In this document: in pieces, positions 29,218 to 60,689 of the stretch
How positions within the stretch are numbered: the first letter of the stretch is position 1
Layout of the letters: each line of letters begins with the position of its first letter
Assembly: GCF_045037415.1 (NCBI RefSeq)
Contig: NZ_CP173438.1
Length of the DNA: 64,000 nucleotides
Strand: one strand, 5' to 3'
Source: Escherichia coli
GTDB lineage: Bacteria; Pseudomonadota; Gammaproteobacteria; Enterobacterales; Enterobacteriaceae
Made by a program: the position numbers and the translations under genes
Notes under the pieces: generated by a model
What the model was told of the DNA's origin: nothing
Seen by the model: the letters and a program-made list of their open reading frames with translations, nothing else
Databases searched by the model: none

Positions 29218-29250
29218 GCCTGATAAAACGCTCGCTGCGTTTTATCAGGC
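29218..29250 (+). terminator. Hairpin at the dtpD 3' end (overlaps phr stop)
   Basis: gcctgataaaacgc-tcgct-gcgttttatcaggc inverted repeat. Confidence 0.45.
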
Positions 29251-30663
29251 TCCTTTCCTCGCTTCTTCGTACGCTGCCAGCGTTCGCAGCCTTGCCTCTT
29301 TGTGATCGACTATCGGTTGCGGATAATCCAACGTCACACCTGTTTTCTCTGCCCACTTCCACGGCTCATGCACCGCTTTCCCCGGTACATCGCGCAGCTC
29401 CGGTAGCCACTGGCGGATAAATTCGCCTTCGCGGTCAAATTTCTCGCCCTGAGTTGTCGGGTTGAAAATACGAAAATACGGCGCTGCATCAGTACCCGTA
29501 GAAGCGGCCCACTGCCAGCCACCGTTATTAGCTGCCAAATCACCATCAATCAGCTGCGACATGAAATATCGCTCGCCTTCGCGCCAGTCGATCAACAAAT
29601 CTTTCACCAGAAAACTGGCTGTAATCATCCGTAGCCGGTTATGCATCCAGCCAGTGCTGTTAAGCTGACGCATGGCAGCATCGACAATCGGGTATCCCGT
29701 TTTGCCTTCCTGCCAGGCCTTTAAATGGGCGGGATTACTTTGCCACTGTACACGATCCGTCCAGGCAATAAACGGACGATGTTTACACAGCGAAGGATAA
29801 TACGTCATCAAATGGCGGTAGAACTCGCGCCAGATCAGCTCACTAAGCCAGACACTACCGGCTCCACCGTCCAGCGCCTGCGGCTGTTCCGCCAACAAGC
29901 GATGCAAACACTGGCGAGGCGATAACCCGCCCGTTGCCAGGCTGGCGGACAAACGACTGGTGCCTTCTACTGCCGGAAAATCTCGTTGTTGCTCATACTC
30001 TCCGGCACCGTTCTGGCAAAACTGGCGTAATTGCGCAATCGCCGCTTTTTCTTCCACCGGGAAATGCGCAGTATCGAAAGACTGACGAGGATAATTCAGC
30101 GTAATGGATGGCGCGGGATCTATCGCTCCACTACTACGTACTTTTGGCGCAGCGACGCACTCCGGCATCCCTTCCCGCAGCCGTTTCAGCCAGGCATTCT
30201 TAAAAGGCGTAAAGACTTTGTACATCTCATGATTGCCAGTCATCACCGCCCCCGGCGGCAGGATCACGCTGTCATCAAATCCTTCACACACCACGTTACG
30301 CAGCGCTCTTTCAACTTCCACATCCCGCGCCCGCTCATTTACCTCATACTGATAGTTATAAAAAAGATGAGTAACGCGGTTTTCCGCGCACACCTGTTTA
30401 ACTATTTCGACGCTGGCGGCAAAGTCATCCACTTCACGGAACAATAAAGGAATACCTTTTTCCGCCAGCGCGTTTTGCAGCGCATTAAGTTGTGTATTGA
30501 TAAGTTCAGCCTGACGCGGCGACACATTATGCGCCGCCCACTGGCGTGGGGTAGCGATATACAACGCCAGCACGCGTGCAGACGAATTGCGGCAGGCGGC
30601 AGCCAGTGCGAGATTATCGTGCAGACGTAAATCCTGGCGAAACCAGACCAGATGGGTAGTCAT
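29245..30663 (-). CDS. phr: deoxyribodipyrimidine photolyase
   Basis: 472 aa; MTTHLVWFRQDLRLHDNLAL N-terminus; FAD-binding C-terminal domain. Confidence 0.93.
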   Translation of the reverse strand: MTTHLVWFRQDLRLHDNLALAAACRNSSARVLALYIATPRQWAAHNVSPRQAELINTQLNALQNALAEKGIPLLFREVDDFAASVEIVKQVCAENRVTHLFYNYQYEVNERARDVEVERALRNVVCEGFDDSVILPPGAVMTGNHEMYKVFTPFKNAWLKRLREGMPECVAAPKVRSSGAIDPAPSITLNYPRQSFDTAHFPVEEKAAIAQLRQFCQNGAGEYEQQRDFPAVEGTSRLSASLATGGLSPRQCLHRLLAEQPQALDGGAGSVWLSELIWREFYRHLMTYYPSLCKHRPFIAWTDRVQWQSNPAHLKAWQEGKTGYPIVDAAMRQLNSTGWMHNRLRMITASFLVKDLLIDWREGERYFMSQLIDGDLAANNGGWQWAASTGTDAAPYFRIFNPTTQGEKFDREGEFIRQWLPELRDVPGKAVHEPWKWAEKTGVTLDYPQPIVDHKEARLRTLAAYEEARKGA

Positions 30664-31169
30664 AAAACTCCTGCATGGCGCAAGTTAATCACACGCGGCC
30701 AAAGTTCGAAATAACGCTGCCCTGAAAGCCAGGCGTCAGGATAAAGCGCCATATAGTGTTTGATACGCATCAGCGGCGCAAGAAGCGATTGCTCGCCACG
30801 GCGATAACTGTCGATAAGCGCCGCCAGCTGCTGGCGTTCTGTGGAATCAATATGTGGGCGAAAATATCCCTGAACGTGCATCAAAACGTTAGTATGATCA
30901 CGCCGGTTGGCAGGGTGAGAAAGCAAAACAATCACGCGTTGGCGGTACTGGTTGTAATAGTCATCCAGACTTTGCCACCGGTGAATATCAGCCACAAACG
31001 GGCCAAGTTTGCGGTACTCCGGCTGAGAATGCGCCAGAAAGACGAGTTTATAGCGGCTGTGATAATCGAGAAGCGCCCCGCGCGTTAGTCCTCGATCTTT
31101 GAGATTGTGTAACTCATGCAAAGCAAAAATGCGGATAAGGGTGCTGTCATCAAAAAGTTGTTGATTCAT
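30660..31169 (-). CDS. ybgA: DUF1722-family protein co-transcribed with photolyase
   Basis: 169 aa; 4-bp overlap with phr start. Confidence 0.85.
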   Translation of the reverse strand: MNQQLFDDSTLIRIFALHELHNLKDRGLTRGALLDYHSRYKLVFLAHSQPEYRKLGPFVADIHRWQSLDDYYNQYRQRVIVLLSHPANRRDHTNVLMHVQGYFRPHIDSTERQQLAALIDSYRRGEQSLLAPLMRIKHYMALYPDAWLSGQRYFELWPRVINLRHAGVL

Positions 31170-31250: not shown

Positions 31251-31269
31251 TAAACGTCATGTTTGGCAA

Positions 31270-31476
31270 TCAGTAAAAATCACCGGTTGCCTTTTCGGCC
31301 TGATCCATCCACACCGGTTTATCGCTGGTTTTCGACCAGACGCGGTGCAGGTAGCTATAAAAGCGGGCGCGGTCTTTCCAGAAAAGCATGAAAGGCAGCG
31401 CCAGAACGCCCGCTGCAACCGCACAAGTACGGCGTAAAAAGATAAGCCATGCAGGATATTCTTTGTAGAGTTCCAT
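31270..31476 (-). CDS. ybfA: small DUF2517-family protein
   Basis: 68 aa; [17 protein letters not shown]-terminus. Confidence 0.8.
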
Positions 31477-36203: not shown

Positions 36204-38880
36204 CGAACCCTTACGTCCCGACCCCGATCGTCTGCTGGAACAAACTGCCGCGCCGCATCGGGGGAAGCTGAAAGTTTTCTTCGGTGCCTGCGCAGGCGTC
36301 GGAAAGACCTGGGCGATGCTGGCAGAAGCCCAGCGACTGCGGGCGCAAGGGCTGGATATTGTGGTTGGCGTGGTAGAAACCCACGGGCGGAAAGATACCG
36401 CCGCAATGCTGGAAGGTCTGGCTGTTCTGCCGCTGAAACGCCAGGCGTACCGTGGGCGGCATATCAGCGAGTTTGATCTCGATGCCGCCCTCGCCCGCCG
36501 TCCGGCACTGATCTTAATGGACGAACTGGCGCACAGTAATGCGCCAGGTTCTCGTCATCCTAAACGCTGGCAGGACATCGAAGAGCTGCTGGAAGCAGGC
36601 ATTGATGTTTTCACTACCGTCAACGTTCAGCATCTGGAAAGCCTGAACGATGTGGTCAGTGGCGTAACCGGAATTCAGGTTCGGGAAACCGTGCCCGATC
36701 CTTTTTTCGATGCCGCCGACGACGTAGTACTGGTGGACTTGCCCCCGGACGATCTGCGCCAACGACTGAAAGAAGGCAAAGTCTATATTGCCGGGCAGGC
36801 AGAACGCGCCATTGAGCATTTTTTCCGCAAAGGCAATCTGATCGCCCTGCGCGAGCTGGCGCTACGCCGTACTGCCGATCGCGTAGATGAGCAAATGCGC
36901 GCGTGGCGGGGGCATCCTGGCGAAGAGAAAGTCTGGCACACGCGCGACGCGATCCTTTTATGCATCGGGCATAACACCGGCAGTGAGAAACTGGTCCGCG
37001 CGGCGGCGCGGCTGGCGTCGCGCCTGGGCAGTGTCTGGCACGCGGTGTATGTTGAAACCCCTGCCCTGCATCGCTTACCGGAGAAAAAACGTCGGGCAAT
37101 TCTCAGCGCCTTACGTCTGGCGCAGGAGTTGGGCGCGGAGACGGCAACACTTTCTGATCCAGCGGAAGAAAAAGCAGTAGTGCGTTATGCCCGTGAACAT
37201 AATCTCGGCAAGATTATTCTCGGTCGCCCGGCCTCGCGCCGCTGGTGGCGTCGGGAAACGTTTGCTGACCGGCTGGCGCGCATCGCCCCCGATCTCGATC
37301 AGGTACTGGTCGCGCTTGATGAACCACCCGCCCGCACGATTAATAACGCGCCGGATAGCCGCTCTTTTAAAGACAAGTGGCGGGTACAGATTCAGGGATG
37401 CGTGGTTGCCGCCGCGTTATGCGCCGTTATCACCTTAATTGCCATGCAGTGGCTGATGGCGTTTGATGCCGCCAACCTGGTGATGCTGTATCTGCTTGGC
37501 GTGGTTGTGGTGGCACTATTTTACGGACGCTGGCCTTCGGTGGTTGCGACCGTCATTAATGTGGTGAGTTTCGATCTCTTTTTTATCGCCCCACGCGGCA
37601 CGCTCGCCGTCTCTGATGTGCAATATCTGCTGACCTTCGCGGTGATGTTAACCGTCGGGCTGGTGATCGGGAACCTTACTGCTGGCGTGCGTTATCAGGC
37701 GCGGGTAGCCCGTTACCGCGAACAACGCACACGGCACTTATATGAAATGTCCAAAGCTCTGGCTGTGGGCCGTAGTTCGCAGGATATCGCCGCCACCAGC
37801 GAACAGTTTATTGCCTCCACGTTTCATGCCCGTAGCCAGGTGTTGCTGCCTGATGACAACGGTAAATTGCAGCCTTTAACACATCCGCAAGGAATGACGC
37901 CGTGGGACGATGCCATCGCGCAGTGGAGTTTTGATAAAGGCCTGCCTGCGGGCGCGGGCACCGACACGTTACCCGGTGTACCGTACCAGATTTTGCCGCT
38001 AAAAAGCGGCGAGAAAACCTACGGACTGGTGGTGGTGGAACCGGGGAATCTGCGCCAGTTGATGATCCCGGAACAGCAGCGCCTGCTGGAGACGTTTACG
38101 CTGTTAGTCGCCAATGCCCTTGAGCGACTGACACTGACCGCCAGCGAAGAACAGGCGCGGATGGCAAGCGAACGTGAACAGATCCGCAACGCCCTGCTGG
38201 CGGCGCTTTCGCATGATTTACGCACGCCGCTTACGGTGCTGTTCGGTCAGGCAGAAATCTTAACGCTCGATCTGGCAAGCGAAGGATCGCCCCACGCCCG
38301 CCAGGCCAGCGAGATTCGTCAGCATGTGCTGAACACCACCCGACTGGTGAATAATCTACTGGATATGGCGCGAATTCAGTCCGGCGGCTTTAATTTGAAG
38401 AAAGAGTGGTTAACGCTGGAAGAAGTGGTCGGCAGCGCGCTGCAAATGCTGGAACCGGGTTTATCGTCGCCCATCAATCTTTCTCTGCCAGAGCCGCTGA
38501 CCTTAATCCACGTTGACGGGCCACTCTTTGAACGGGTGCTGATTAACCTGCTGGAGAACGCGGTGAAATATGCGGGGGCGCAGGCCGAAATTGGTATCAA
38601 TGCCCACATCGAGGGCGAAAATCTACAACTGGATGTCTGGGATAACGGCCCCGGTCTTCCACCAGGCCAGGAGCAGACGATATTTGATAAGTTTGCTCGC
38701 GGGAATAAAGAGTCGGCGGTACCGGGTGTAGGGCTTGGGTTGGCAATTTGTCGGGCGATAGTGGATGTACACGGCGGCACCATTACCGCATTCAACCGAC
38801 CGGAAGGTGGTGCCTGTTTTCGTGTTACACTTCCCCAGCAAACAGCCCCTGAACTTGAAGAATTTCATGAGGATATGTGA
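36196..38880 (+). CDS. kdpD: sensor histidine kinase KdpD
   Basis: About 894 aa; N-terminal KdpD and Usp domains, membrane segments, C-terminal HisKA/HATPase ([10 protein letters not shown]). Confidence 0.95.
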
Positions 38881-39554
38881 CAAACGTTCTGATTGTTGAA
38901 GATGAACAGGCTATTCGTCGCTTTCTGCGCACGGCGCTGGAGGGCGATGGGATGCGCGTCTTTGAGGCCGAAACGCTGCAACGCGGCTTGCTGGAAGCGG
39001 CTACCCGTAAGCCAGATTTGATTATTCTCGATCTCGGCCTGCCCGATGGTGATGGGATTGAGTTTATCCGCGACCTGCGCCAGTGGAGCGCGGTGCCGGT
39101 GATTGTGCTTTCCGCACGTAGCGAAGAGAGCGACAAAATCGCCGCGCTGGATGCCGGAGCGGATGATTATCTGAGTAAGCCGTTTGGCATTGGCGAATTG
39201 CAGGCCCGTCTGCGCGTCGCTTTACGTCGCCACTCCGCCACCGCCGCGCCCGATCCGCTGGTGAAATTTTCCGATGTTACCGTCGATTTAGCCGCCCGCG
39301 TTATCCATCGGGGCGAGGAAGAGGTGCATCTCACCCCGATTGAGTTCCGCCTGCTGGCAGTGTTGCTCAACAACGCCGGAAAAGTGCTCACCCAGCGCCA
39401 GTTACTCAATCAGGTGTGGGGACCAAACGCGGTCGAACACAGCCACTATTTGCGTATTTATATGGGGCATCTGCGACAAAAACTGGAGCAAGATCCCGCC
39501 CGCCCCCGCCATTTTATTACTGAAACCGGTATTGGGTATCGGTTTATGCCATGA
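38877..39554 (+). CDS. kdpE: response regulator KdpE (OmpR family)
   Basis: 225 aa; receiver domain (LIILDLGLPDGDG) and winged-helix domain; overlaps kdpD stop. Confidence 0.95.
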   Translation: MTNVLIVEDEQAIRRFLRTALEGDGMRVFEAETLQRGLLEAATRKPDLIILDLGLPDGDGIEFIRDLRQWSAVPVIVLSARSEESDKIAALDAGADDYLSKPFGIGELQARLRVALRRHSATAAPDPLVKFSDVTVDLAARVIHRGEEEVHLTPIEFRLLAVLLNNAGKVLTQRQLLNQVWGPNAVEHSHYLRIYMGHLRQKLEQDPARPRHFITETGIGYRFMP

Positions 39555-39598
39555 ATTATTATTCAATAAATACGCTTAAATAATTATTAATTTATTAT

Positions 39599-39640
39599 TA
39601 AACCTGCCCCGAAAATTATTATTTGGCAGGTTTAATTTCT
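39599..39640 (+). terminator. Intrinsic terminator downstream of kdpE
   Basis: aacctgcc...ggcaggtt hairpin followed by a T-rich tract. Confidence 0.55.
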
Positions 39641-39828
39641 TAATGAAAATACAACCCACAAAATTGCAACATTTAAACAACAAAACAGCATCTAATATGG
39701 CGCTATTCATCATTAATGATTTATTATTTGGGATATGATCGTTTTTTGTTGATCTTCTTCACAGATTATAGCCATTTCATGGATAGAATAACCCTACCTT
39801 CAACTGACACAGAAAAAGGTAAAGGTAA

Positions 39829-39933
39829 ATGGAAAATAATAACCGCTTAATGCCTCATATAAGGCGGACAACCCATATCATGAAGTTTGCCCATCGTAAT
39901 AGTTTTGACTTTCATTTTTTTAATGCCCGCTAG
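39829..39933 (+). CDS. speFL: speF leader / ornithine-sensing ribosome arrest peptide (34 aa)
   Basis: ORF MENNNRLMPHIRRTTHIMKFAHRNSFDFHFFNAR* about 300 bp upstream of speF; matches the known SpeFL leader including the C-terminal HFFNAR-type arrest region; below ORF-track cutoff. Confidence 0.8.
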   Translation: MENNNRLMPHIRRTTHIMKFAHRNSFDFHFFNAR

Positions 39934-40242
39934 TCTTCTGACTAAAGGGCACCCCAGCGTACAGGTCTCCCTGACTTTAAGCATTACAGGTTAATACCTG
40001 TATCCCTCGGTGCTCATATACTGCTAACCCTTTTAAACTCTAAATAATTCGAGTCGCAGCACATGCAACTTGAAGTATGACGAGTATAGCCAGTTACCGG
40101 GCTGGTCTGGGTTATTGCATCTGCAAAAAGCAAACTACTGATTTATTTATCAGCGGTGGGGTTTTGCTTTTTTCCGGCGTGATCAATTTCTCCTTTGAGA
40201 AATTGAGGACCTGCTATTACCTGAAATAAAGAGATGAACAAA

Positions 40243-42441
40243 ATGTCAGAATTAAAAATTGCCGTTAGCCGTTCTTGCCCGGATTGTTTTTCCACTCATC
40301 GTGAATGCGTGAATATTGACAAAAGTAATTATATTGACGTTGCCGCCATTATTTTATCAGTCAATGATGTTGAACATGGAAAACTCGATGAAATAGACGC
40401 TACTGGCTATGGCATTCCTGTTTTTATTGCAACGGAAAATGAAGAACGTGTACCAGCAGAATATCTGCCACGTATTTCTGGTGTCTTCGAGCATTGCGAA
40501 TCACGGAAAGAGTTTTATGGACGTCAGTTAGAAACCGCTGCCAGCCATTATGAAACGCAACTGCGCCCGCCCTTCTTCCGCGCACTGGTCGATTATGTCA
40601 ATCAGGGCAATAGCGCTTTTGACTGCCCGGGTCATCAGGGAGGTGAGTTTTTCCGTCGCCATCCGGCAGGCAATCAGTTCGTGGAATATTTTGGCGAAAT
40701 GCTCTTCCGCTCCGACTTGTGTAATGCCGACGTTGCAATGGGCGATCTACTGATTCATGAAGGTGCGCCATGCATTGCACAGCAACATGCGGCTAAAGTG
40801 TTTAATGCCGATAAAACGTACTTTGTTTTAAACGGCACATCCTCCTCCAACAAAGTGGTTTTAAACGCCCTGCTGACACCGGGTGATCTGGTGCTGTTTG
40901 ACCGTAATAACCATAAGTCTAACCACCACGGAGCGTTGCTACAGGCTGGTGCAACACCGGTTTATCTGGAAACAGCACGTAACCCGTATGGTTTTATCGG
41001 TGGCATTGATGCGCACTGCTTCGAAGAAAGTTATCTGCGTGAACTGATTACAGAAGTTGCACCGCAACGGGCAAAAGAGGCGCGTCCGTTCCGCCTCGCT
41101 GTGATTCAGTTAGGCACCTACGACGGTACTATTTATAACGCCCGCCAGGTGGTGGATAAAATCGGCCATCTGTGTGACTACATCCTGTTTGACTCCGCAT
41201 GGGTCGGCTATGAACAGTTTATTCCGATGATGGCGGACTGTTCGCCGCTGCTACTGGAGCTTAATGAGAACGATCCGGGTATTCTGGTTACGCAATCTGT
41301 GCATAAACAACAGGCTGGTTTTTCTCAGACTTCACAAATTCATAAAAAAGACAGCCATATCAAAGGGCAACAGCGTTATGTACCGCACAAACGCATGAAC
41401 AACGCCTTTATGATGCACGCCTCCACCAGCCCGTTCTATCCGCTGTTTGCCGCACTGGATATCAACGCCAAAATGCATGAAGGTGTCAGCGGTCGTAATA
41501 TGTGGATGGATTGTGTGGTTAACGGTATTAATGCCCGCAAATTGATCCTCGATAACTGCCAGCACATTCGCCCGTTCGTTCCTGAACTGGTGGATGGTAA
41601 ACCCTGGCAGTCGTATGAAACAGCGCAAATTGCGGTTGATCTGCGCTTCTTTAAATTTGTACCCGGTGAGCACTGGCATTCTTTTGAAGGCTACGCAGAG
41701 AACCAATACTTTGTCGATCCGTGCAAACTGTTGCTGACAACTCCAGGTATTGATGCACGTAACGGCGAATATGAAGCGTTCGGTGTACCCGCAACGATTC
41801 TTGCTAACTTCCTGCGCGAAAATGGCGTAGTGCCGGAAAAATGCGATCTTAACTCCATCCTCTTCCTGCTGACTCCGGCAGAAGATATGGCCAAACTGCA
41901 GCAACTTGTTGCCCTGCTGGTACGCTTCGAAAAACTACTGGAAGCTGATGCGCCTCTGGCGGAAGTACTGCCTTCCATCTACAAACAGCATGAAGAGCGC
42001 TACGCCGGTTATACCCTGCGTCAGTTGTGCCAGGAAATGCATGATTTGTATGCCCGTCACAACGTGAAACAACTGCAAAAAGAGATGTTCCGTAAGGAAC
42101 ACTTCCCTCGCGTCAGCATGAATCCGCAAGAAGCCAACTACGCCTACTTACGCGGTGAAGTGGAGCTGGTTCGTCTGCCGGATGCAGAAGGCCGTATCGC
42201 TGCCGAAGGTGCGCTTCCTTATCCTCCGGGTGTGCTGTGTGTTGTTCCTGGTGAAATCTGGGGTGGTGCTGTTCTGCGTTACTTCAGCGCTCTGGAAGAA
42301 GGCATCAACCTGCTGCCAGGTTTTGCACCGGAGCTGCAGGGTGTCTATATCGAAGAACATGATGGTCGTAAGCAAGTTTGGTGCTATGTCATCAAGCCTC
42401 GTGATGCGCAAAGCGCCCTGTTGAAAGGGGAAAAATTATGA
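40243..42441 (+). CDS. speF: inducible ornithine decarboxylase
   Basis: Large PLP-dependent decarboxylase; ORF-track start 40234 (MNKMSELKIAV...) with an alternative ATG at 40243 that has better Shine-Dalgarno spacing; overlaps potE start. Confidence 0.93.
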   Translation: MSELKIAVSRSCPDCFSTHRECVNIDKSNYIDVAAIILSVNDVEHGKLDEIDATGYGIPVFIATENEERVPAEYLPRISGVFEHCESRKEFYGRQLETAASHYETQLRPPFFRALVDYVNQGNSAFDCPGHQGGEFFRRHPAGNQFVEYFGEMLFRSDLCNADVAMGDLLIHEGAPCIAQQHAAKVFNADKTYFVLNGTSSSNKVVLNALLTPGDLVLFDRNNHKSNHHGALLQAGATPVYLETARNPYGFIGGIDAHCFEESYLRELITEVAPQRAKEARPFRLAVIQLGTYDGTIYNARQVVDKIGHLCDYILFDSAWVGYEQFIPMMADCSPLLLELNENDPGILVTQSVHKQQAGFSQTSQIHKKDSHIKGQQRYVPHKRMNNAFMMHASTSPFYPLFAALDINAKMHEGVSGRNMWMDCVVNGINARKLILDNCQHIRPFVPELVDGKPWQSYETAQIAVDLRFFKFVPGEHWHSFEGYAENQYFVDPCKLLLTTPGIDARNGEYEAFGVPATILANFLRENGVVPEKCDLNSILFLLTPAEDMAKLQQLVALLVRFEKLLEADAPLAEVLPSIYKQHEERYAGYTLRQLCQEMHDLYARHNVKQLQKEMFRKEHFPRVSMNPQEANYAYLRGEVELVRLPDAEGRIAAEGALPYPPGVLCVVPGEIWGGAVLRYFSALEEGINLLPGFAPELQGVYIEEHDGRKQVWCYVIKPRDAQSALLKGEKL

Positions 42442-43757
42442 GTCAGGCGAAATCGAACAAAATGGGTGTCGTTCAGTTAACCATACTGACGATGGTCAAC
42501 ATGATGGGCTCCGGTATCATCATGCTGCCGACAAAGCTTGCCGAAGTCGGGACAATCTCAATTATCTCCTGGCTGGTGACAGCCGTAGGCTCAATGGCAC
42601 TGGCATGGGCATTCGCAAAATGCGGTATGTTCAGCCGTAAATCAGGAGGTATGGGCGGTTATGCCGAGTATGCTTTCGGTAAATCCGGTAACTTTATGGC
42701 GAACTATACCTACGGCGTCTCGCTGCTGATTGCTAACGTCGCGATTGCTATTTCGGCGGTTGGTTACGGCACCGAACTGCTCGGCGCGAGTTTGTCGCCA
42801 GTGCAGATTGGTCTTGCGACCATCGGGGTGCTGTGGATTTGTACCGTGGCTAACTTTGGTGGTGCGCGCATTACCGGGCAAATCAGTAGCATTACCGTGT
42901 GGGGGGTCATTATTCCGGTGGTAGGCCTGTGCATTATCGGCTGGTTCTGGTTTAGCCCGACGCTTTACGTTGATTCCTGGAATCCGCATCATGCACCCTT
43001 CTTCAGTGCGGTAGGTTCTTCCATCGCTATGACGCTGTGGGCTTTTCTTGGTCTGGAGTCTGCGTGTGCGAATACTGATGTAGTGGAAAACCCGGAACGT
43101 AATGTGCCAATCGCGGTACTCGGCGGTACGTTAGGTGCGGCGGTGATTTATATCGTCTCCACCAACGTGATTGCCGGGATTGTGCCAAATATGGAGCTGG
43201 CAAATTCAACGGCACCATTTGGTCTGGCCTTCGCGCAGATGTTCACGCCGGAAGTGGGTAAAGTCATTATGGCGCTGATGGTGATGTCCTGCTGCGGTTC
43301 GCTGCTTGGCTGGCAGTTCACCATTGCCCAGGTGTTTAAATCTTCATCTGATGAAGGCTACTTCCCTAAAATTTTCTCCCGTGTAACCAAAGTGGATGCA
43401 CCGGTGCAGGGAATGTTGACCATTGTGATTATCCAGAGCGGGTTGGCGCTGATGACGATTAGCCCGTCGCTAAACAGTCAGTTCAACGTGCTGGTTAACC
43501 TGGCCGTGGTGACTAATATCATTCCGTATATTCTGTCAATGGCGGCATTAGTCATTATTCAGAAGGTCGCTAATGTGCCCCCCTCAAAAGCGAAAGTTGC
43601 AAACTTTGTTGCTTTTGTTGGCGCGATGTACAGCTTTTATGCGCTGTACTCATCCGGGGAAGAAGCCATGCTATACGGTTCCATCGTGACCTTCCTCGGT
43701 TGGACACTGTATGGTCTGGTCTCACCACGCTTTGAACTGAAAAATAAACACGGTTAA
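42438..43757 (+). CDS. potE: putrescine-ornithine antiporter (APC family)
   Basis: 439 aa; MSQAKSNKMGVVQLTILTMVNMMGSGIIMLP N-terminus. Confidence 0.95.
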   Translation: MSQAKSNKMGVVQLTILTMVNMMGSGIIMLPTKLAEVGTISIISWLVTAVGSMALAWAFAKCGMFSRKSGGMGGYAEYAFGKSGNFMANYTYGVSLLIANVAIAISAVGYGTELLGASLSPVQIGLATIGVLWICTVANFGGARITGQISSITVWGVIIPVVGLCIIGWFWFSPTLYVDSWNPHHAPFFSAVGSSIAMTLWAFLGLESACANTDVVENPERNVPIAVLGGTLGAAVIYIVSTNVIAGIVPNMELANSTAPFGLAFAQMFTPEVGKVIMALMVMSCCGSLLGWQFTIAQVFKSSSDEGYFPKIFSRVTKVDAPVQGMLTIVIIQSGLALMTISPSLNSQFNVLVNLAVVTNIIPYILSMAALVIIQKVANVPPSKAKVANFVAFVGAMYSFYALYSSGEEAMLYGSIVTFLGWTLYGLVSPRFELKNKHG

Positions 43758-43766
43758 TTAAGCAAA

Positions 43767-43802
43767 GCAAAAAAGGGCGATCTTCCGACCGCCCTTTTTC
43801 TT
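43767..43802. terminator. Bidirectional terminator between potE and pgm
   Basis: aaaaagggcg...cgccctttttc hairpin with flanking A-run and T-run. Confidence 0.6.
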
Positions 43803-43813
43803 ATTTGATATGT

Positions 43814-45454
43814 TTACGCGTTTTTCAGAACTTCGCTAACAATTTCAACCGCTTCTTTCTCAATCTGCTTGCGATGTTCTTCACCAAGGAAGCTTTCGCA
43901 GTAGATCTTATATGCGTCTTCCGTGCCTGACGGACGCGCGGCGAACCAGCCGTTGTCAGTCATCACTTTCAGACCGCCGATAGAAGCGCCATTACCCGGT
44001 GCCGCCGTCAGACGCGCGGTGATCGGGTCACCTGCCAGGGTGCTGGCGCTCACCATTTCCGGAGACAGCTTAGACAACGCCGCTTTTTGTGCGGAAGTCG
44101 CTGCTGCCTGCAAACGGTTATAGCTCGGCGCACCAAAGCGTTTTGCCAGTTCGTTATAGTGTTCCTGCGGGTTCTTACCGGTGACAGCGGTGATTTCCGC
44201 CGCCAGCAGACACATAATGATGCCGTCTTTATCGGTGGACCACGGCGTGCCGTCGAAACGCAGGAAGGAAGCCCCTGCGCTCTCTTCGCCGCCAAAGCCG
44301 AAGCTGCCGTCGAACAGACCATCAACAAACCATTTGAAACCTACCGGGACTTCTACCAGCTTACGGCCCAAGTCATTGACCACACGGTCGATCATCGCAG
44401 ATGAAACCAGCGTTTTACCGACAGCAACATCTTTGCCCCACTGCGGACGATGCTGGAACAGGTAATTGATCGCCACCGCCAGGTAGTGGTTCGGATTCAT
44501 CAAACCTGCCGGAGTGACGATACCGTGACGGTCATAATCCGGGTCGTTAGCAAACGCCAGATCGAACTTATCACGCAGTGCCAGCAGGCCCGCCATCGCA
44601 CACTCGGAGGAGCAGTCCATACGGATCGCGCCGTCTTTATCAAGGTGCATAAAGCGGAAGGTTTGATCGACCTGATCGTTAACAATAGTCAGGTTGAGGT
44701 TGTAATACTCGCCAATACGCTTCCAGTATTCGATACCGGAACCGCCCAGCGGATCAACGCCAAGCGTCAGGCCCGCTTTCTGAATCGCCGCCATATCAAC
44801 GATATCGGCCAGCCCTTCCACAAACGGCTGCACCAGATCCTGCTCTTTCACATGACCGGATGCCATCGCTTCGTCGAGGGAGATACGCTTCACGCCTTTC
44901 AGGCCATCAGCCAGCAGTGCGTTTGCTCTGTCTTCCACCACTTTAGTGACGTTGGTATCAGCCGGGCCACCATTTGGCGGATTGTACTTGATACCACCAT
45001 CTTCCGGCGGGTTATGGGACGGTGTAATCACGATACCGTCTGCCAGCGGGCCACCTTTTTTATTGTGAACCAGAATGGCATTGGAAATGGCAGGTGTCGG
45101 AGTGAAGCCATTGTTTTCCTGCACAATGACATCAACGCCGTTCGCTGCCAGCACTTCCAGTACGGAAATGAACGCAGGCTCGGACAGGGCGTGAGTATCT
45201 TTACCCACATAGCAAGGGCCAGTGATGCCGTTTTTCGCACGTTCTTCAGCAATTGCCTGAGCGATCGCCAGAATGTGCGGCTCGTTAAAGCTGTGGCGCG
45301 CTGCACTGCCACGGTGACCGGAAGTACCGAATTTCACCGCGTGCTCCGCATTCCCTGCTTCTGGTTTCAGTACATAATATTGCGCCGTCAGTTGGGCGAC
45401 GTTAATCAAATCACTCTGTTGTGCAGGTTGGCCTGCACGATTGTGGATTGCCAT
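43814..45454 (-). CDS. pgm: phosphoglucomutase
   Basis: ORF-track frame to 45505; start placed at [16 protein letters not shown]; active-site TSGHRG and phosphosugar-binding motifs. Confidence 0.95.
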
Positions 45455-45479
45455 TGCTTTGTCCTTTGTCTGCAACGTT

Positions 45480-46025
45480 TTAGATAGTTCCGCAAACCTT
45501 CTCAATCAATTCCGCCGGGAATTGCATCGACTGCATGATGTGTTCGATCATGCTGCATTTACGGCCGGTGTTGGTGTTGGTGATCACCCAATACGGCGTA
45601 CCAGGCACATGTTTCGGCTTGGTCTGATTACCATTTTTCAGCAGCGTTTGTTCATCTGCCGCAAAGTAAACGCGTGTACGACCGTGCAACGATTCCGTTG
45701 CTTCGGCAAACGCCTGGGCGTCAAGAGAATATAGTGTAGACAACAGCAGCATAAAGCGATTGACCGCTCGCTTTTGCTCTGCGTATTCGTCCGAAAGCAG
45801 AAGTTCACGCATTGCGCGAACCTTGTCTTTAATCGTTTTGACCGGCTTCGCTTCGACGATAGCAGGTGACGCAACGCGAACCTCTTTCGTCACCGGAGCA
45901 GCAGGCTGTGATGCGGCGGTAAATTTCAACATACGCCGTAAAATGTCGGATGCGCTCTCGCCGATATGCTTAGTGTGGCTGGCAATATAGCTGTAGAGTT
46001 CATCATCAACTTCAATCGTTTTCAT
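45480..46025 (-). CDS. seqA: replication initiation negative regulator SeqA
   Basis: ORF-track frame to 46160; start placed at [22 protein letters not shown]. Confidence 0.93.
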
Positions 46026-46209
46026 CTTAATCCAGTGCAGTGTCTTAGCTGAATACAAGTCGCCAGGAGTATATGAATAAATCCCGGCAGCGGATAGCGT
46101 CAAGCCTGGCTTGCAGAAAAACTCGGAATAAACCTTATTTGTTGCAGCCCTGTGGCACAATGGTCAACATAATACCCTAACCCGACAACGCGAAAAAAAG
46201 AACTTTGCC

Positions 46210-46974
46210 ATGAAATTGAATATCCGCGCGCAAACTGCACAAAACCAGCACAATAATTCTCCCATCGTTCTTGTCCATGGTCTGTTTGGCAGCCTCGACA
46301 ACCTTGGCGTACTGGCTCGCGATCTGGTAAACGATCACAATATCATCCAGGTTGATATGCGTAACCACGGTCTTTCACCGAGAGATCCGGTAATGAATTA
46401 CCCGGCGATGGCGCAGGATCTTGTTGATACCCTGGATGCACAGCAGATCGACAAAGCAACATTTATCGGTCACTCCATGGGCGGTAAAGCGGTAATGGCT
46501 CTTACTGCACTAGCCCCTGATCGCATTGACAAGCTGGTGGCGATTGATATTGCGCCGGTCGATTATCACGTTCGCCGTCATGATGAGATTTTCGCGGCCA
46601 TCAACGCAGTCAGTGAATCAGACGCACAAACACGCCAGCAAGCAGCGGCAATAATGCGCCAGCATCTTAATGAAGAAGGGGTGATTCAGTTTCTGTTGAA
46701 ATCTTTTGTTGACGGGGAGTGGCGCTTTAACGTGCCAGTATTGTGGGATCAGTATCCGCATATTGTGGGTTGGGAGAAAATCCCGGCATGGGATCATCCT
46801 ACCCTGTTTATCCCTGGCGGCAATTCTCCGTATGTTAGCGAGCAGTACCGTGATGATTTACTGGCACAATTTCCACAGGCTCGGGCGCATGTGATTGCAG
46901 GCGCGGGTCACTGGGTCCATGCTGAAAAACCGGATGCGGTATTACGCGCTATCCGTCGCTATCTCAATGATTAA
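46210..46974 (+). CDS. ybfF: alpha/beta-hydrolase-fold esterase
   Basis: 254 aa; GHSMGG nucleophile-elbow motif. Confidence 0.9.
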   Translation: MKLNIRAQTAQNQHNNSPIVLVHGLFGSLDNLGVLARDLVNDHNIIQVDMRNHGLSPRDPVMNYPAMAQDLVDTLDAQQIDKATFIGHSMGGKAVMALTALAPDRIDKLVAIDIAPVDYHVRRHDEIFAAINAVSESDAQTRQQAAAIMRQHLNEEGVIQFLLKSFVDGEWRFNVPVLWDQYPHIVGWEKIPAWDHPTLFIPGGNSPYVSEQYRDDLLAQFPQARAHVIAGAGHWVHAEKPDAVLRAIRRYLND

Positions 46975-47113
46975 CGCAACTGATTAAAAACCCAGCGTCC
47001 GCGTCGCTTTCCGCGCGTGGACGTTGGCGTGACTCATCGCGCTGATGTATTATGGCGCGCTATCCATCCGGGCAGAGGCCTGGCTGATTGTTTCCCCCGA
47101 AGTCACCAAGATC

Positions 47114-53003: not shown

Positions 53004-53765
53004 TTAGTCGGCTATGATTAAACGCGTCGACAAGGACGCAAGCGTTCTACGCGTCTGCCCATCAAGCTGACTATCCGTAATAATCTCTGTCAGTTCATTA
53101 AGATGCGCGATATTAAACAGCGACCATGAACCGTATTTTGAGCTGTCAGCCAGGAGAATTTTGCGCGAAGCATGCGCGATAAGATCGCGTTTTAGTGCGG
53201 CTTTCTCTTCCGTGGGTGCTGTAATACCCTTTTCAAGATCCCAGCTGTTACAGCTTAAAAATGCCACGTCCGGCCAGGTATTTTGCAGCAATTTACGACC
53301 ATGTTCGCCAATGCAGGACTGGCTGGAGTCGTCAATACGTCCGCCGATAATCGTCACTTCAATTTGCTTGAATTCAGCCAAAAAAAGCGCGATATGCAGG
53401 TCGCTTGTGATCACGCGAAGCGGTAAATGTGTAATCTGCCGCGCAAGTTCAATCATTGTCGTACCGGCATCAAGGACGACGGAATCCCCCGCTTTGACCA
53501 TTGACGCCGCTGCGCTGGCGATGGCATGTTTTTCCGCCAGGCTGCGCTGCATTTTCTCATGGGTAGTCGGTTGGGTAGGAATAAACCGGTTGAGAGTCAC
53601 ACCGCCGTGTGTACGGCTGATAACACCCTGCTCATCGAGTTTTATCAGGTCTCGACGAATCGTAGCCGGCGACGCATTGGTTACCGCCACCAGCTCATCT
53701 ACGGTGACCAGATTATGGCTTTTCAGGTAATCCATGATCTGCTCTAACCGGTTATATCCCTTCAT
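53004..53765 (-). CDS. DeoR-family transcriptional regulator
   Basis: 253 aa; N-terminal HTH ([17 protein letters not shown]) and C-terminal sugar-phosphate sensor domain. Confidence 0.85.
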
Positions 53766-53766
53766 T

Positions 53767-54753
53767 TTATTCTCGCGAAATCTGCATTGCTAACTGGATG
53801 GAAACTGCCATGCTCTCAGACTTGGCTTTTCCTGTCCAGGCAATATCAAACGCGGTGCCGTGGTCGGCAGAAGTGCGAATAAATGGCAACCCGGCGGTGA
53901 TATTCACCCCATCATAAAATCCAAGCAGTTTTAAAGGGATATGCCCCTGATCGTGGTACATAGCCACTACCATATCGAATAGCCCTTCATGGCATTGCAT
54001 AAACACGGTATCTGGCGGGCACGGGCCAGTAACATCAATATCTTCGGCCTGCATTGCTTCAATCGCAGGCGCGATAATCTCGATTTCCTCAGTGCCGAAT
54101 AAACCATGTTCCCCTGCATGTGGATTTACACCCGCCACGGCAATACGCGGACGCTCAATACCAACACGTTTCAGGAAGTGGTTCGCAACTCGAATAACCG
54201 TTTTGACCCTTTCACCATTCAAAGTATCCAGGAATTTACGCAGTGAGATGTGAGTCGAAATATGGATAACCTTGAGCTTCTCGGTATAGAGCACCATCGC
54301 GTACTCTTTGCTGCCGGTAAGATGGGCCAGCAATTCCGTATGCCCCGGATAGTTATGCCCGCCAAGATGCAGCGCTTCTTTATTCAGCGGCGCAGTGGCT
54401 ATGGCTTTCACCTCGCCTGATAAGGCCAGAGCCGTTGCACGTTTGATACAGCGATACGCTAAATCGCCTGCCACAGCCTGTACCACTCCGGGTGTCAGCG
54501 CATCGGGGTTAGCCAGCGGCTCATCCATCACGTTAATCACGCCGGGAGCAAAATGGGCGTCGCACACCTTTTGAATGACGCGTAACTCTGCCTGCGGCGT
54601 GATATTCATCGCCATAATACGTCGCAGCGTGCGCACACAGCCCACCACCACCACCGGGGCACCAGCAAGCCCGGCTTCGCTCAGGGATTTAATAATGATC
54701 TCCGGGCCAATACCCGCCGGATCGCCCATCGTTACCGCAATAATATTATTCAC
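53767..54753 (-). CDS. PdxA-family NAD-dependent dehydrogenase (PdxA2-like, 4-phospho-hydroxy-acid oxidative decarboxylase type)
   Basis: 328 aa; [21 protein letters not shown]-terminus typical of PdxA; 8-nt overlap with the upstream kinase. Confidence 0.85.
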
Positions 54754-55984
54754 TACGCTTCTCCTCGATAAAATTCAGAACCTGATGCAACGTGGTCTCA
54801 TCGCCAAACCCACCGGCTTTCGTCATCACCGAACGGGACCAGACGCCGCCCAGAAAGTGACCGTATGGAACGCATTGCGCCACCTTCCCCGTAATACGAA
54901 ATCCGGTCGCGCCTAACGCACTGGCTGTTGCCATTGCGACATCACCACCAGAGAGATAAAGCGCATCGGGCATTGCGCAAAGCAGAACTTGCCGGGTAAG
55001 TTCGCCAAGAAACCGGCAAATTTTTTCCCCAAGTGCAGCGCGACTCATCTGCCAACGCTGGCAAAGGGTGTCGATCTGATGCCTTGCTACAGAATCGTTA
55101 CAGGTGTGGACAATACAGTGGTCGCCTTTCTGCAAGGCCTGCACAATACGCGCGTCATAGTCACTGGCATTGCCTGCCAGAATGTGTTCAACATCGACGT
55201 ATATCTGTGTGATACGTGGGTGTGAATGAAGTGTGGCGATCTGCCGTTGAGCGATTTCGCTCATTGAACCAATAATGGCCAGCACGGTGGGTGGCGGCAT
55301 AATCGCGGAGCGCCGGGCAACGGCATCACAAATACCAGCGGAGCCGACCAGCAGCAGCGGTTGTTTAGCCTGCATCACAGCGGCAGCGATGCGATCCAGG
55401 TCGCTGTCCGTCTGCGCATCTATCACGCCAATCCACGGTTGCTCATAAGACAAATGGCTGAGCTGAGAAACCGTAACGGGCTGGCATGGAATGGCCGTCT
55501 GCAACCGGATGATGTCCGCAATTCGGGCGCTCAATACCGGGGTTTTCGGATCGCTAGCAAACTCGGTTTCCGTTATCCGCACACCGTTTACCCAACACTC
55601 ACCGGCCACTGTGGTCCTTCCCGCCTGAGGAAATGCGGGGGCAACCACTGCGCCCGTTATACCGCATGCCTTCATCAGGGCTTCAATTTCTGCGCCGATA
55701 TTGCCTCGCAGCGTGGAATCTATCTTTTTAATCACGAGCGGCGGGTTATTCGCCAGAGGGAGATGACTCATCAGCGAGGTTATTTTCATCGCCGCCAGCT
55801 TAGGATCCATCGCCCGACTGTCGCTGTTAATCACCCATACGCTGGCATCACCGCGATAAGGCATTTCAAAGGCCACATCAACTGTATGCCCCACCTGCGC
55901 CAGGCTTACCCCCGCGTCGTTGGCTCCCGTGAAATCATCGGCAACGATGAGAATGCTCGGCTTAGTGATTCCCTTTTCCATCAT
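54746..55984 (-). CDS. DUF1537-family four-carbon acid-sugar kinase
   Basis: ORF-track frame to 56023 (TTG); start placed at tandem Met MMEKGITKPSILIVADDFTGANDAG, typical of the family. Confidence 0.8.
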   Translation of the reverse strand: MMEKGITKPSILIVADDFTGANDAGVSLAQVGHTVDVAFEMPYRGDASVWVINSDSRAMDPKLAAMKITSLMSHLPLANNPPLVIKKIDSTLRGNIGAEIEALMKACGITGAVVAPAFPQAGRTTVAGECWVNGVRITETEFASDPKTPVLSARIADIIRLQTAIPCQPVTVSQLSHLSYEQPWIGVIDAQTDSDLDRIAAAVMQAKQPLLLVGSAGICDAVARRSAIMPPPTVLAIIGSMSEIAQRQIATLHSHPRITQIYVDVEHILAGNASDYDARIVQALQKGDHCIVHTCNDSVARHQIDTLCQRWQMSRAALGEKICRFLGELTRQVLLCAMPDALYLSGGDVAMATASALGATGFRITGKVAQCVPYGHFLGGVWSRSVMTKAGGFGDETTLHQVLNFIEEKRSE

Positions 55985-56019
55985 CACTCCAGGTTGTTTT
56001 ATGATAACAATGATTATAT

Positions 56020-56033
56020 TCAATCATGATTGA
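56020..56033. promoter_or_regulatory. Perfect 14-bp palindrome TCAATCA|TGATTGA, candidate operator
   Basis: Located about 35 bp upstream of the kinase start in the divergent intergenic region. Confidence 0.4.
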
Positions 56034-56116
56034 TTAAATGTGAGCAAGCTCAAGTTATTAATCACTCGAATAAATTATAAAATTAGACCATGTTACGTAG
56101 GCTACGGCATTTTGAA

Positions 56117-56132
56117 TGATTGAATTCAATCA
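56117..56132. promoter_or_regulatory. Perfect 16-bp palindrome TGATTGAA|TTCAATCA, candidate operator
   Basis: Same half-site as 56020..56033 in opposite arrangement; about 20 bp upstream of the Fe-ADH start. Confidence 0.4.
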
Positions 56133-56150
56133 CCAGAAGAGAGGTTATTT

Positions 56151-57308
56151 GTGGTAATTATCAATAGCACGATACTGAGCGGCGCAGGCGCTATCCCTTC
56201 CCTGACGTCGCTCTTACCCGACATCAGAAAAATGCTGCTGGTCACTGACCGTAATATTGCGCAGCTCGACGGTGTGCAGCAGATTCGCGCCTTACTGGAA
56301 AAGCACTGCCCGCAGGTTAACGTTATCGATAATGTGCCCGCAGAGCCCACGCATCATGATGTGCGCCAGCTAATGGATGCCCTTGGCGATGCCTCTTTTG
56401 ATGTGGTGGTCGGGATCGGCGGTGGCAGCGTGTTGGATGTGGCGAAGCTGCTATCGGTGCTTTGCCATCCACAATCACCGGGGCTGGATGCGCTGCTTGC
56501 GGGTGAAAAACCGACTCAGCGGGTGCAATCATGGTTGATTCCTACAACCGCCGGAACCGGCTCAGAAGCCACGCCGAATGCGATTCTGGCAATCCCTGAG
56601 CAAAGCACGAAGGTGGGTATTATTTCCCAGGTGCTGTTACCAGACTATGTGGCGCTTTTCCCGGAACTGACCACCAGTATGCCCGCGCATATTGCGGCGT
56701 CCACGGGCATTGATGCTCTTTGCCACTTACTGGAGTGTTTTACCGCGACCGTGGCAAATCCGGTCAGCGATAACGCGGCGCTGACTGGGTTAAGTAAACT
56801 TTTCCGGCACATTCAACCCGCCGTGAACGATCCTCAGGATCTGCGCGCAAAACTGGAAATGCTGTGGGCGTCTTACTATGGCGGCGTAGCGATAACCCAT
56901 GCGGGCACGCATCTCGTTCATGCGCTCTCCTACCCGTTAGGTGGCAAATATCATCTGCCGCATGGCGTCGCGAATGCCATCTTGCTGGCGCCGTGCATGG
57001 CGTTTGTTCGCCCCTGGGCGGTCGAGAAATTTGCCCAGGTCTGGGATTGCATTCCCGATGCGGAAACCGCCCTGAGCGCGGAAGAAAAATCTCATGCCCT
57101 GGTGACCTGGTTACAGGCATTAGTCAATCAACTCAAGCTACCCAACAATCTCGCGGATCTCGGCGTACCGCCAGAGGATATTGCCTCTCTGAGCGAGGCG
57201 GCACTGAACGTGAAGCGCCTTATGAACAATGTGCCGTGCCAGCTTGATCTACAGGACGTACAGGCCATTTACCAAACACTGTTTCCGCAACATCAATTTA
57301 AGGAATAA
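56151..57308 (+). CDS. iron-containing (group III) alcohol dehydrogenase
   Basis: 385 aa; GTG start with GAGAGG Shine-Dalgarno; GGGSVLD and metal-binding His motifs. Confidence 0.85.
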   Translation: MVIINSTILSGAGAIPSLTSLLPDIRKMLLVTDRNIAQLDGVQQIRALLEKHCPQVNVIDNVPAEPTHHDVRQLMDALGDASFDVVVGIGGGSVLDVAKLLSVLCHPQSPGLDALLAGEKPTQRVQSWLIPTTAGTGSEATPNAILAIPEQSTKVGIISQVLLPDYVALFPELTTSMPAHIAASTGIDALCHLLECFTATVANPVSDNAALTGLSKLFRHIQPAVNDPQDLRAKLEMLWASYYGGVAITHAGTHLVHALSYPLGGKYHLPHGVANAILLAPCMAFVRPWAVEKFAQVWDCIPDAETALSAEEKSHALVTWLQALVNQLKLPNNLADLGVPPEDIASLSEAALNVKRLMNNVPCQLDLQDVQAIYQTLFPQHQFKE

Positions 57309-57311
57309 ATC

Positions 57312-58199
57312 ATGCCGAAAACCATTGAAGGTGTATTAACCGCTATCGTCACCCCGTTTACCGCGACCGGCAGTCTGAATATCCCGGCGTTAAAAGTGCA
57401 GGTGAATCGTCAACTGGAAGCGGGTAACGCGATTTTTTGCGGCGGCACCAACGGCGAGTTTTTTGTGTTGAATGAACAGGAGAAGCTCAGCGTTACGCAA
57501 ACCTGCGTGGATGAAGTGGCTGGTCGTGCGCCAGTCGTGGCACACATTGGCGAGATCTCTACGCGCGAAACGATTCGTCTGGGTCAGCAGATTGAAAAAC
57601 TTGGCGTAGATGCCGTGTCGGTCATTGCCCCTTACTTCGTACCGCTGAAACAGGAAGAGTTGATTGCGCATTACAGCGCAATTGCCGACACACTGAGCAT
57701 TCCGATGTTTCTCTATAACATCCCGGCCCGCACTGGCAATACGATCCAGCCAGAAACCGCGCGTGCTCTGGCGTCGCACCCCAATATCATTGGGATTAAA
57801 GACAGCGACGGAAGCGACGAAAGCCTGAAGGGTTTTCTCGATGCGGTGCGCGACATTGACGGCTTTAATGTGCTCAACGGCCCGGATTCGCTGATCCATA
57901 AAGGGTTTGTCGAGGGATGTTCAGCCTGTATCTCTGGGCTCGCCAACGTCGCGCCGCGAGAAATCAATGCCATCTGGTCTCGCTTCCATGCCGGTGATAT
58001 TGAAGGGTCTTATGAAGCACAGGAGAGTGTAACGGGCCTGCGTACCGATCTTTATAAAGTAGCATTCTCCCCGGCTGCGGTGAAAAAAGCGTTGCAGCTT
58101 ATGGGGCATGATGTTGGTGATAGCCGCTACGCGGTTAATTTCACGCCTGAACAGATCAGCGAGATTCAACAAATTATTCGTCATTATAACATTAATTAA
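57312..58199 (+). CDS. DapA/NanA-family class I aldolase (pyruvate-lyase type)
   Basis: 295 aa; GTNGEF motif, Schiff-base lysine in IIGIKDS, Tyr in LYNIP. Confidence 0.85.
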   Translation: MPKTIEGVLTAIVTPFTATGSLNIPALKVQVNRQLEAGNAIFCGGTNGEFFVLNEQEKLSVTQTCVDEVAGRAPVVAHIGEISTRETIRLGQQIEKLGVDAVSVIAPYFVPLKQEELIAHYSAIADTLSIPMFLYNIPARTGNTIQPETARALASHPNIIGIKDSDGSDESLKGFLDAVRDIDGFNVLNGPDSLIHKGFVEGCSACISGLANVAPREINAIWSRFHAGDIEGSYEAQESVTGLRTDLYKVAFSPAAVKKALQLMGHDVGDSRYAVNFTPEQISEIQQIIRHYNIN

Positions 58200-58258
58200 A
58201 TTAACTCTATTATCCAGCCCGCTATAAAGTTTAGATAAAGAGAATAAAGGATTACCCC

Positions 58259-59017: not shown

Positions 59018-59052
59018 TAAATCTATTACCAACTTTAAGATGGAGTCTAACT

Positions 59053-60222: not shown

Positions 60223-60689
60223 TTATCGGTAATCTCAACCATTTGTCGCTGGCGGGGCTTCCTGCCTGGGTGAGAAATATTCTGCTGCGCCCGGAGTGTT
60301 CGTTATCGGCGTTATCCACCAGAGAGGACGGTCGCTGGCAACCTGAAGGATGTCGGTGGTTCTGCTCGCTGGGAACTTCAGACACGCAACCCGCCGAACT
60401 TCGCCATACGGAGTATCACCATCTATGGGCCGATATACAGGTGGTGATTACTGGTTGTGAGGGCATTAATGCGGGAACGCGGCCCATCGCTCGCGAAAAC
60501 GATGAAGAACGTAAGCCCGATCTGTTTATCGCCCCATCCCCTGAAAACAGTGTCGCCATCACCCTACACGCCGGTGATTTCGCCGTCTTTATGCCTGAGG
60601 AACCTCACCAGGCACTGTGCGCAATTGGCACGGCTACTTCAATACGCAAAGCGGTCTTTAAAGTACCGCGCGACATGCTGGAAGCCTAA
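60219..60689 (+). CDS. YhcH/YjgK/YiaL-family (DUF386) protein
   Basis: 156 aa; ATGA start/stop overlap with the BNR gene. Confidence 0.75.
   Translation: MIIGNLNHLSLAGLPAWVRNILLRPECSLSALSTREDGRWQPEGCRWFCSLGTSDTQPAELRHTEYHHLWADIQVVITGCEGINAGTRPIARENDEERKPDLFIAPSPENSVAITLHAGDFAVFMPEEPHQALCAIGTATSIRKAVFKVPRDMLEA

Follow-up and report, generated by a model that had tools for sequence, protein, structure and literature searches.

The 56-bp spacer between potE and pgm in the window, as the whole 64,000-nucleotide stretch of Escherichia coli DNA analysed here is called, is an ordinary, already annotated core-genome junction and the commonest form of this site in E. coli; most likely it is the scar left by a clean deletion that ran from one of two twin terminators to the other. 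The explanation that best accounts for the observations as a whole, and that is considered fairly probable, combines a bidirectional terminator shared by the two convergent genes with an origin of the short allele by deletion, probably recurrent, between two near-identical hairpins, T1 and T2, both of which are found in the longer K-12 allele.

Anatomy of the junction and its hairpin

The genes potE (42438-43757, plus strand), coding for a putrescine-ornithine antiporter, and pgm (43814-45454, minus strand), coding for phosphoglucomutase and convergent with potE, were identified from the list of open reading frames (ORFs), the RefSeq annotation of strain SK1144 and tblastn. The potE frame ends ...K N K H G TAA, and direct reading and the ORF list agree in placing its TAA stop codon at 43755-43757; the pgm stop codon occupies 43814-43816 on the minus strand. 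The intervening 56 bp (43758-43813), a length already given by the first-pass annotation, are confirmed by both and represent the short allele of a multi-allelic structural polymorphism. potE is the last gene of the speFL-speF-potE operon, which ends at the hairpin described below and whose upstream genes, encoding the speFL leader peptide (39829-39933, plus strand) and speF (40243-42441, plus strand), were placed by the SK1144 annotation and tblastn. A match to isrH in the long speF leader downstream of speFL (40032-40088, plus strand; 24.2 bits against a gathering score of 45, E-value 0.0012) was rejected as an RNA gene because it is sub-threshold, and it probably reflects chance or leader structure.

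The window is 99.99% identical to SK1144 across all 64 kb, with five substitutions and one indel, and a 1-kb junction segment is 99.9% identical to that of SE15. The 1-bp indel lies at 30249, and coordinates of the SK1144 locus are converted to those of the window by subtracting 1 for features upstream of this position. In the window phrB (29245-30663) is an intact ORF of 472 aa, while the SK1144 record is without one C at 30249 and has phrB annotated as frameshifted; the discrepancy is either a true strain difference or an assembly error in the SK1144 record.

The sole structure in the spacer is one inverted repeat of the A-tract/GC-stem/T-tract type at 43769-43800, readable on both strands, with the left arm AAAAAAGGGCGATC (43769-43782), the loop TTCC (43783-43786) and the right arm GACCGCCCTTTTTC (43787-43800). 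The terminator scan reported it on the minus strand as a 14-pair stem with six G-C pairs and a 4-nt loop. The 71-nt region folds with -19.5 kcal/mol (z -2.65) on the plus strand and with -23.4 kcal/mol (z -4.12) on the minus strand, where 0 of 200 shuffles fold as well; an A.C mismatch in the plus-strand RNA, which may make potE termination weaker than with the T1 hairpin, becomes a G-U pair in the minus-strand RNA. The distance from the hairpin to the stop codon is 11 nt on the potE side and 13 nt on the pgm side. The plus-strand T-tract TTTTTCTTATTTG (43795-43799 and on through 43807) provides the U-tract for potE transcripts, while pgm transcripts reach the hairpin and then UUUUUUGCUUUGCUU, the minus-strand U-tract being TTTTTTGCTTTGCTT, the complement of 43760-43774. 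Each strand therefore presents a G+C-rich stem-loop with a U-rich tract 3' of the stem, in one element situated between convergent stop codons and having an A-tract upstream and a T-tract downstream. Lying between two stop codons and flanked by A and T tracts, the element has the textbook context of an intrinsic terminator. From these features the hairpin is very probably an intrinsic terminator with terminator activity, and it would serve both convergent transcripts, that of potE at the end of speFL-speF-potE and that of pgm at the end of seqA-pgm. The earlier description of the spacer as essentially one bidirectional terminator is supported by the single hairpin, which looks terminator-like on both strands.

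A quite different nature of the palindrome, mainly as a REP-type element, a small RNA gene or a protein-binding site, is very improbable. It could appeal to weak matches to MicX on both strands of the hairpin and to the REP/BIME elements that occupy this interval in other alleles. The MicX matches, however, reach only 23.2 and 20.9 bits against a gathering score of 75, cover only the terminator-like hairpin and were rejected as an RNA gene; the Rfam scan of 39000-46500 at a permissive E-value found no family at gathering score in the spacer. The REP consensus palindrome (of the GCCGGATGCGGCG / CGCCTTATCCGGCCTAC type) is absent from 43758-43813, whereas it is present in the spacers of K-12, E69 and three further loci (L003, L004 and L010). 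The promoter scan found no promoter-like site in the spacer or near it, and 56 bp are too few to hold a gene. Small ORFs that extend across the spacer (43570-43770 on the minus strand and 43805-43930 on the plus strand) were dismissed: they fall within potE and pgm or run antisense to them, and the SK1144 annotation does not include them.

A preprint (bioRxiv 10.1101/2022.10.23.513370), referring to the SEnd-seq study of Ju et al. 2019, describes bidirectional terminators that lie between pairs of convergent genes in E. coli; according to this source, many such elements are unlike canonical intrinsic terminators, and RNA polymerase collisions are involved. Like the elements of Ju et al. 2019, the window has a single palindrome between convergent stops, a hairpin with a U-tract on both strands and a short, 56-bp spacer. 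Unlike many of them, its hairpin looks canonical intrinsic on both strands.

The K-12 long allele and the hybrid hairpin

In MG1655, 1,747 bp separate the stop codon of potE from that of pgm, and comparison with K-12 thus does not return the same 56-bp junction; the interval carries ybfP and the ybfG/ybfH remnants that the first-pass annotation attributed to K-12. The order of the K-12-type allele is potE-T1-REP-kdpE'-ybfG(DUF2625)-ybfP-BIME-T2-pgm. On the potE side, T1 is a perfect hairpin, AAAAAAGGGCGATTGAATGATCGCCCTTT, and K-12's own potE hairpin, after which come a REP with its flank and, just after T1, the kdpE' remnant, a copy of the last 145 bp of kdpE (38877-39554, plus strand, in the window; about 90-91% identity in local alignment). 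The remnant is absent from the window. In the K-12 locus (L001, 3378-3522; 716722-716856 of the K-12 record) this 145-bp kdpE 3' copy is annotated only as a winged-helix fragment, namely a 'winged helix-turn-helix, missing N-terminus' pseudogene. It is followed by ybfG/ybfH, a DUF2625 pseudogene with an internal stop, by the lipoprotein gene ybfP, by a BIME between ybfP and T2, and by the second hairpin T2, AAAAAAGGGCGATCTTGCGACCGCCCTTTTTT, beside pgm. A kdpE' copy is also found, further diverged, in HS4 and E06, and the remnant may be a footprint of the joining of speF-potE to the ybfG-ybfP islet. For YbfP a Pfam family was not found and for YbfG only DUF2625, so that function gives no clue to the origin of the islet.

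The G+C content of the K-12 segment is low (43.7% versus 50-55% in the flanking genes), as acquired DNA often has, which would suit a scenario in which the 56-bp junction is ancestral and was never occupied and the K-12-type 1.7-kb segment was inserted later, with duplication of the terminator. This scenario, to which the comparison with relatives below is also relevant, is on the whole unlikely. The insertion must duplicate 31 nt of the terminator, but mobility genes and att-like features were not found: the segment and its borders are free of integrase and transposase genes and of tRNAs (tRNA scan of 38000-47000), and it looks neither like a self-mobile insert nor like the insertion or excision site of a mobile element.

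The preferred reading, a deletion between the twin hairpins, is based in part on the structure of the repeats. T1 and T2 are near-identical (25 of 31 nt), and in K-12 a direct repeat, D2, of 31 nt and 81% identity, which includes 15 identical bases, GTAAAAAAGGGCGAT, brackets the 1,747-bp spacer as GTAAAAAAGGGCGAT...CGCCCTTT. Both hairpins contain GTAAAAAAGGGCGAT and CGCCCTTT and differ in their centres, which read T/CGAATGATC in T1 and CTT(C/G)(C/T)GACC in T2. The window and K-12 have in common the flanking genes, the stretch from the potE stop as far as GGGCGAT and the T2 hairpin beside pgm; they differ in that K-12 has a separate T1, REP, kdpE', DUF2625 pseudogene, ybfP and BIME, whereas the window has only a T1/T2 hybrid.

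The hairpin of the window is such a hybrid, in which the left flank and arm of T1 are joined to the loop, right arm and flank of T2. Its T1-derived part (43758-43782, plus strand) comprises the potE-proximal flank and the shared left arm, and aligns with the sequence that follows the potE stop in K-12, HS4, E06, E69 and Escherichia albertii up to GGGCGAT, beyond which it diverges. Its T2-derived part (43783-43813, plus strand), consisting of the loop, the right arm and the pgm-proximal flank TTCCGACCGCCCTTTTTCTTATTTGATATGT, matches the pgm-side and not the potE-side hairpin of long and potE-lacking alleles (L003, L004, L093, L009 and L010). The inferred crossover zone is the 15-17-nt stretch (A)AG[T/C]AAAAAAGGGCGAT[C] in the left arm. 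The base-level comparison covered only about a dozen junctions, and all of the short E. coli junctions among them (the window, SK1144, E2348/69, P666, O103, O157, EC18, NB4833, Rb-50 and TCM3e1) show the potE-side flank of T1 followed by the centre and pgm-side flank of T2.

The long allele thus has repeats at the boundaries of the deletion and the short allele has kept one hybrid copy, the arrangement of a direct-repeat deletion scar. Deletions between short direct repeats occur by slipped mispairing or short-homology recombination, and the deletion hotspots of lacI are classical. As in lacI-type deletions, the end points lie in a direct repeat, here of 15-17 nt, one hybrid copy is left and the repeats are hairpin-forming; unlike those hotspots, the potE-pgm deletion is deduced from comparative sequence alone. 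Deletion between the identical 15-17-nt left arms of T1 and T2 would yield the short junction with a loss of about 1.7 kb or, if it started from a T1-BIME-T2 intermediate, of about 170 bp, and would probably have taken place more than once in E. coli.

Distribution of the alleles, and direction and recurrence of the proposed deletion

The short junction is the majority allele, present in about 3,160-3,196 of 5,426 complete E. coli genomes (~59%), the higher figure counting genomes in which the end of potE and that of pgm are collinear at a single site and the lower one those detected by a 155-nt junction probe. Each of the full-coverage matches listed spans the query length within one base, and these are therefore short junctions. 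The K-12-type segment is a minority allele, found in 1,851 of the 5,426 genomes (34%) at a coverage of at least 80%, and forms deep sub-lineages, with groups of at least 99% and of about 94.6% identity. Among the long alleles, that of HS4 has an intact DUF2625 gene, and those of E06 (L005, 4546-5004) and MS1679 (L100, 7661-8119) have IS200C, a secondary insertion, directly beside T2 in place of the BIME. The short junction was found in SE15, E2348/69, O157:H7 and O103, and also in NB4833, the Pgm protein accession of which equals that of K-12; the phylogroups represented by these strains are B2, E and B1, along with a K-12-like background. Since it is the majority form and occurs in unrelated backgrounds, it does not define a lineage. 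This prevalence, which includes SE15 and E2348/69, taken here to be phylogroup B2 strains, is also what an ancestral short junction would lead one to expect.

At least 80% of the length of speF-potE is covered in 5,037 of the 5,426 genomes, and at least 254 genomes carry the order kdpE-BIME-ybfP-BIME-T2-pgm without speF-potE. The potE-less alleles (as in S1-ISR-02-A and LHM10-1) resemble the window in the T2 hairpin and the pgm flank, including an identical TTCC loop variant; unlike the window, they have neither speFL-speF-potE nor T1 and have kept ybfP. About 5-7% of complete E. coli genomes are without speF-potE, and the presence of this operon between kdpE and pgm is polymorphic across genera of Enterobacteriaceae too; loss of the inducible ornithine decarboxylase/antiporter operon could matter for the prediction of phenotypes in acid and polyamine physiology. 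A kdpE-like piece in the potE-less strain 2018-05-2CC (L004, 3892-4190) was rejected as a relic of the K-12 kdpE', as in this strain the final 79 bp of kdpE, together with the following BIME, are locally duplicated in tandem.

In a pgm-anchored scan of one genome per species (80 loci, 77 of them not titled E. coli), tblastn detected no ybfP or ybfG homologues next to pgm in the 77 non-E. coli loci. In Enterobacteriaceae pgm is convergent with potE where speF-potE is present, or directly with kdpE where it is absent, and the spacer is usually short. An A-tract/GC-stem/T-tract hairpin, as recognised by a crude classifier, occupies this site in 22 of the 40 other Enterobacteriaceae species with a spacer of 25-110 bp, though the stem sequences differ; a shared terminator of the bidirectional type thus appears to be the normal solution at the 3' junction of pgm. 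Compact junctions with one hairpin in E. albertii and many other genera, together with the restriction of ybfP/ybfG to E. coli loci, favour an ancestral short junction, and outgroup parsimony alone would take compactness as the ancestral state.

The hairpin of E. albertii argues the other way. In E. albertii (L008, NBRC 107761) the 57-bp spacer has, like that of the window, a single A-tract/stem/T-tract hairpin with identical stem arms (AAAAAAGGGCGATC / CGCCCTTTT), but its loop and inner stem are of the T1 type (GATCGAATGATC), whereas those of the window are of the T2 type (GATCTTCCGACC), so that the compact junctions are not collinear descendants of one hairpin copy. The match to E. albertii lies in the potE-side copy of the long alleles and not in the short-allele hairpin: the T1 core GGGCGATCGAATGATCGCCC of E69 is the same as that of the only hairpin in E. 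albertii, while K-12 and HS4 depart from it by 1 nt. As this core matches E. albertii and yet adjoins a potE of the E. coli type, whose divergence from the E. albertii gene is 11%, T1 appears to be the inherited potE-side terminator, orthologous to the E. albertii hairpin, and the short alleles would have lost its loop and right arm. The diagnostic centre is about 9 nt long and unconstrained spacer positions are highly diverged between E. coli and E. albertii, and the assignment of T1 as the orthologue consequently rests on few characters.

E69 (L009) has a spacer of 222 bp with the order T1-BIME-T2 and without ybfP. Its KdpD and KdpE are 99% identical to those of the window, while SpeF and PotE are only 95% identical at the protein level and the potE DNA is 11.7% diverged, as far as that of E. 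albertii, which suggests that speF-potE of E69 was replaced from a divergent Escherichia lineage.

The age of the long allele bears on the direction as well. The kdpE' copies of K-12 and of HS4/E06 differ by 7-9% and the whole inserts by about 5%, and the two potE clades of E. coli are 5-6% apart; the divergence of the remnant and the insert thus matches the split of the potE clades, which dates the long allele to this split or earlier. An allele diverged as deeply as potE fits poorly with late insertion into an unoccupied site, and so does the occurrence of both alleles, with matching T2 variants, on both potE clades: one clade includes the long allele of K-12 and the short ones of the window, O103, O157 and NB4833, and the other the long alleles of HS4 and E06 and the short ones of Rb-50 and TCM3e1. 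Taken together, a change from long to short, the short allele being derived by deletion between T1 and T2, is likely, and the short junction would thus represent a state of loss, as these data suggest, and not a site that was never occupied.

Recurrence of the deletion is probable, although somewhat less certain than its direction. Three loop variants of T2 occur among the short alleles, each identical to one in a long or potE-less allele: TTGC with its flank in O103, EC18 and NB4833 equals the T2 of K-12, TTCT in Rb-50 equals the T2 of HS4, and TTCC in the window equals that of E06, E69 and the potE-less alleles, L003 among them. This does not agree well with a single origin of the short allele, whether by one deletion between T1 and T2 or otherwise, followed by its spread through homologous recombination with crossovers close to the junction. 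Over the last 360 bp of potE, moreover, Rb-50 shows 0-1 mismatches per 120 bp to the long-allele strain HS4, and a transfer would need one crossover to either side of the hairpin, both no more than a few tens of bases away from it. A single origin is accordingly doubted, but two observations speak for it. All short alleles have the left-arm crossover: a short allele with a T1-type loop, as a right-arm crossover would leave, was found in none of the 5,426 genomes (best match to the construct 96.1%), and recurrent deletion might occasionally make one. The region is also strongly mosaic between the window and K-12, the 5' part of speF being 12-13% diverged and potE 1.6%, and with heavy homologous recombination at speF the links between alleles and haplotypes could be shuffled without recurrent deletion. 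The divergent part of speF is the 5' 400 bp of the compared region, which starts from codon 74, while other 200-bp blocks differ by 1-7%, and this mosaicism suggests imported segments.

The position of the kdpE' remnant directly after T1 suggests the conjecture that the long allele arose when a speF-potE haplotype and a kdpE-ybfG-ybfP haplotype became fused at a single illegitimate junction within kdpE. A wider and quite tentative proposal is that the kdpE-pgm interval is an ancient multi-allelic hotspot, in which the twin hairpins are the footprint of a fusion of a speF-potE haplotype with a potE-less ybfG-ybfP haplotype by homology-facilitated illegitimate recombination inside kdpE, which left the 145-bp kdpE'; the twins could then have become the substrate of excision, with the islet lost at least three times and always leaving the same 56-bp terminator.

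Accessory DNA of the region and significance

The first-pass annotation had linked the compact junction, together with missing rhsC and ybgOPQD loci and the gain of two catabolic islands, to a lineage with a streamlined backbone. The absences are borne out, as ybfA and ybgA are adjacent and gltA-abrB is without ybgOPQD, and both islands are present, one with TRAP and UxaA genes in gltA-abrB and a second one in glnS-nagE. The notion of a streamlined backbone is not supported: from the start of mngA to the stop of nagE the window measures about 60,335 bp versus 60,155 bp in K-12, and the short junction is common to most E. coli. Accessory DNA has been swapped, not reduced, about 17 kb of K-12-specific sequence being replaced by about 17 kb of other sequence.

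The gltA-abrB island (14524-22329), located where K-12 has the ybgOPQD fimbrial operon, comprises nine genes, encoding a TRAP transporter (three genes), a split UxaA-family hydrolase (two genes), an SDR oxidoreductase, a Zn alcohol dehydrogenase, an RraA-family protein and a GntR regulator. The glnS-nagE island (53004-61983), at a place where the gap in K-12 is 203 bp, encodes a DeoR regulator, D-threonate 4-phosphate dehydrogenase, D-threonate kinase, an Fe-alcohol dehydrogenase, DHDPS-family, TerC-family and sialidase-family proteins, a YhcH/YjgK/YiaL protein and an SLC13 permease. ybfA (31269-31475) and ybgA (30660-31169) are about 100 bp apart in the window, and in K-12 they are separated by about 9.6 kb containing rhsC, ybfB, an Rhs fragment, ybfC and ISAs1-family transposase pseudogenes.

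A literature search on ybfP/ybfG and speF/potE/kdpE/pgm did not find a paper on this junction. What the present analysis adds is modest, consisting of the argument on polarity, the evidence for recurrence and the 5-7% of complete genomes without speF-potE, and its importance is otherwise small. At the potE-pgm site K-12 is an atypical reference, and the absence of a K-12 gene need not mark a special lineage. The junction offers a concrete, testable case of repeat-mediated deletion that would regenerate a putative bidirectional terminator, and it illustrates how a small accessory islet that lies between near-identical twin terminators can become liable to be lost cleanly, with both neighbouring operons still properly terminated.
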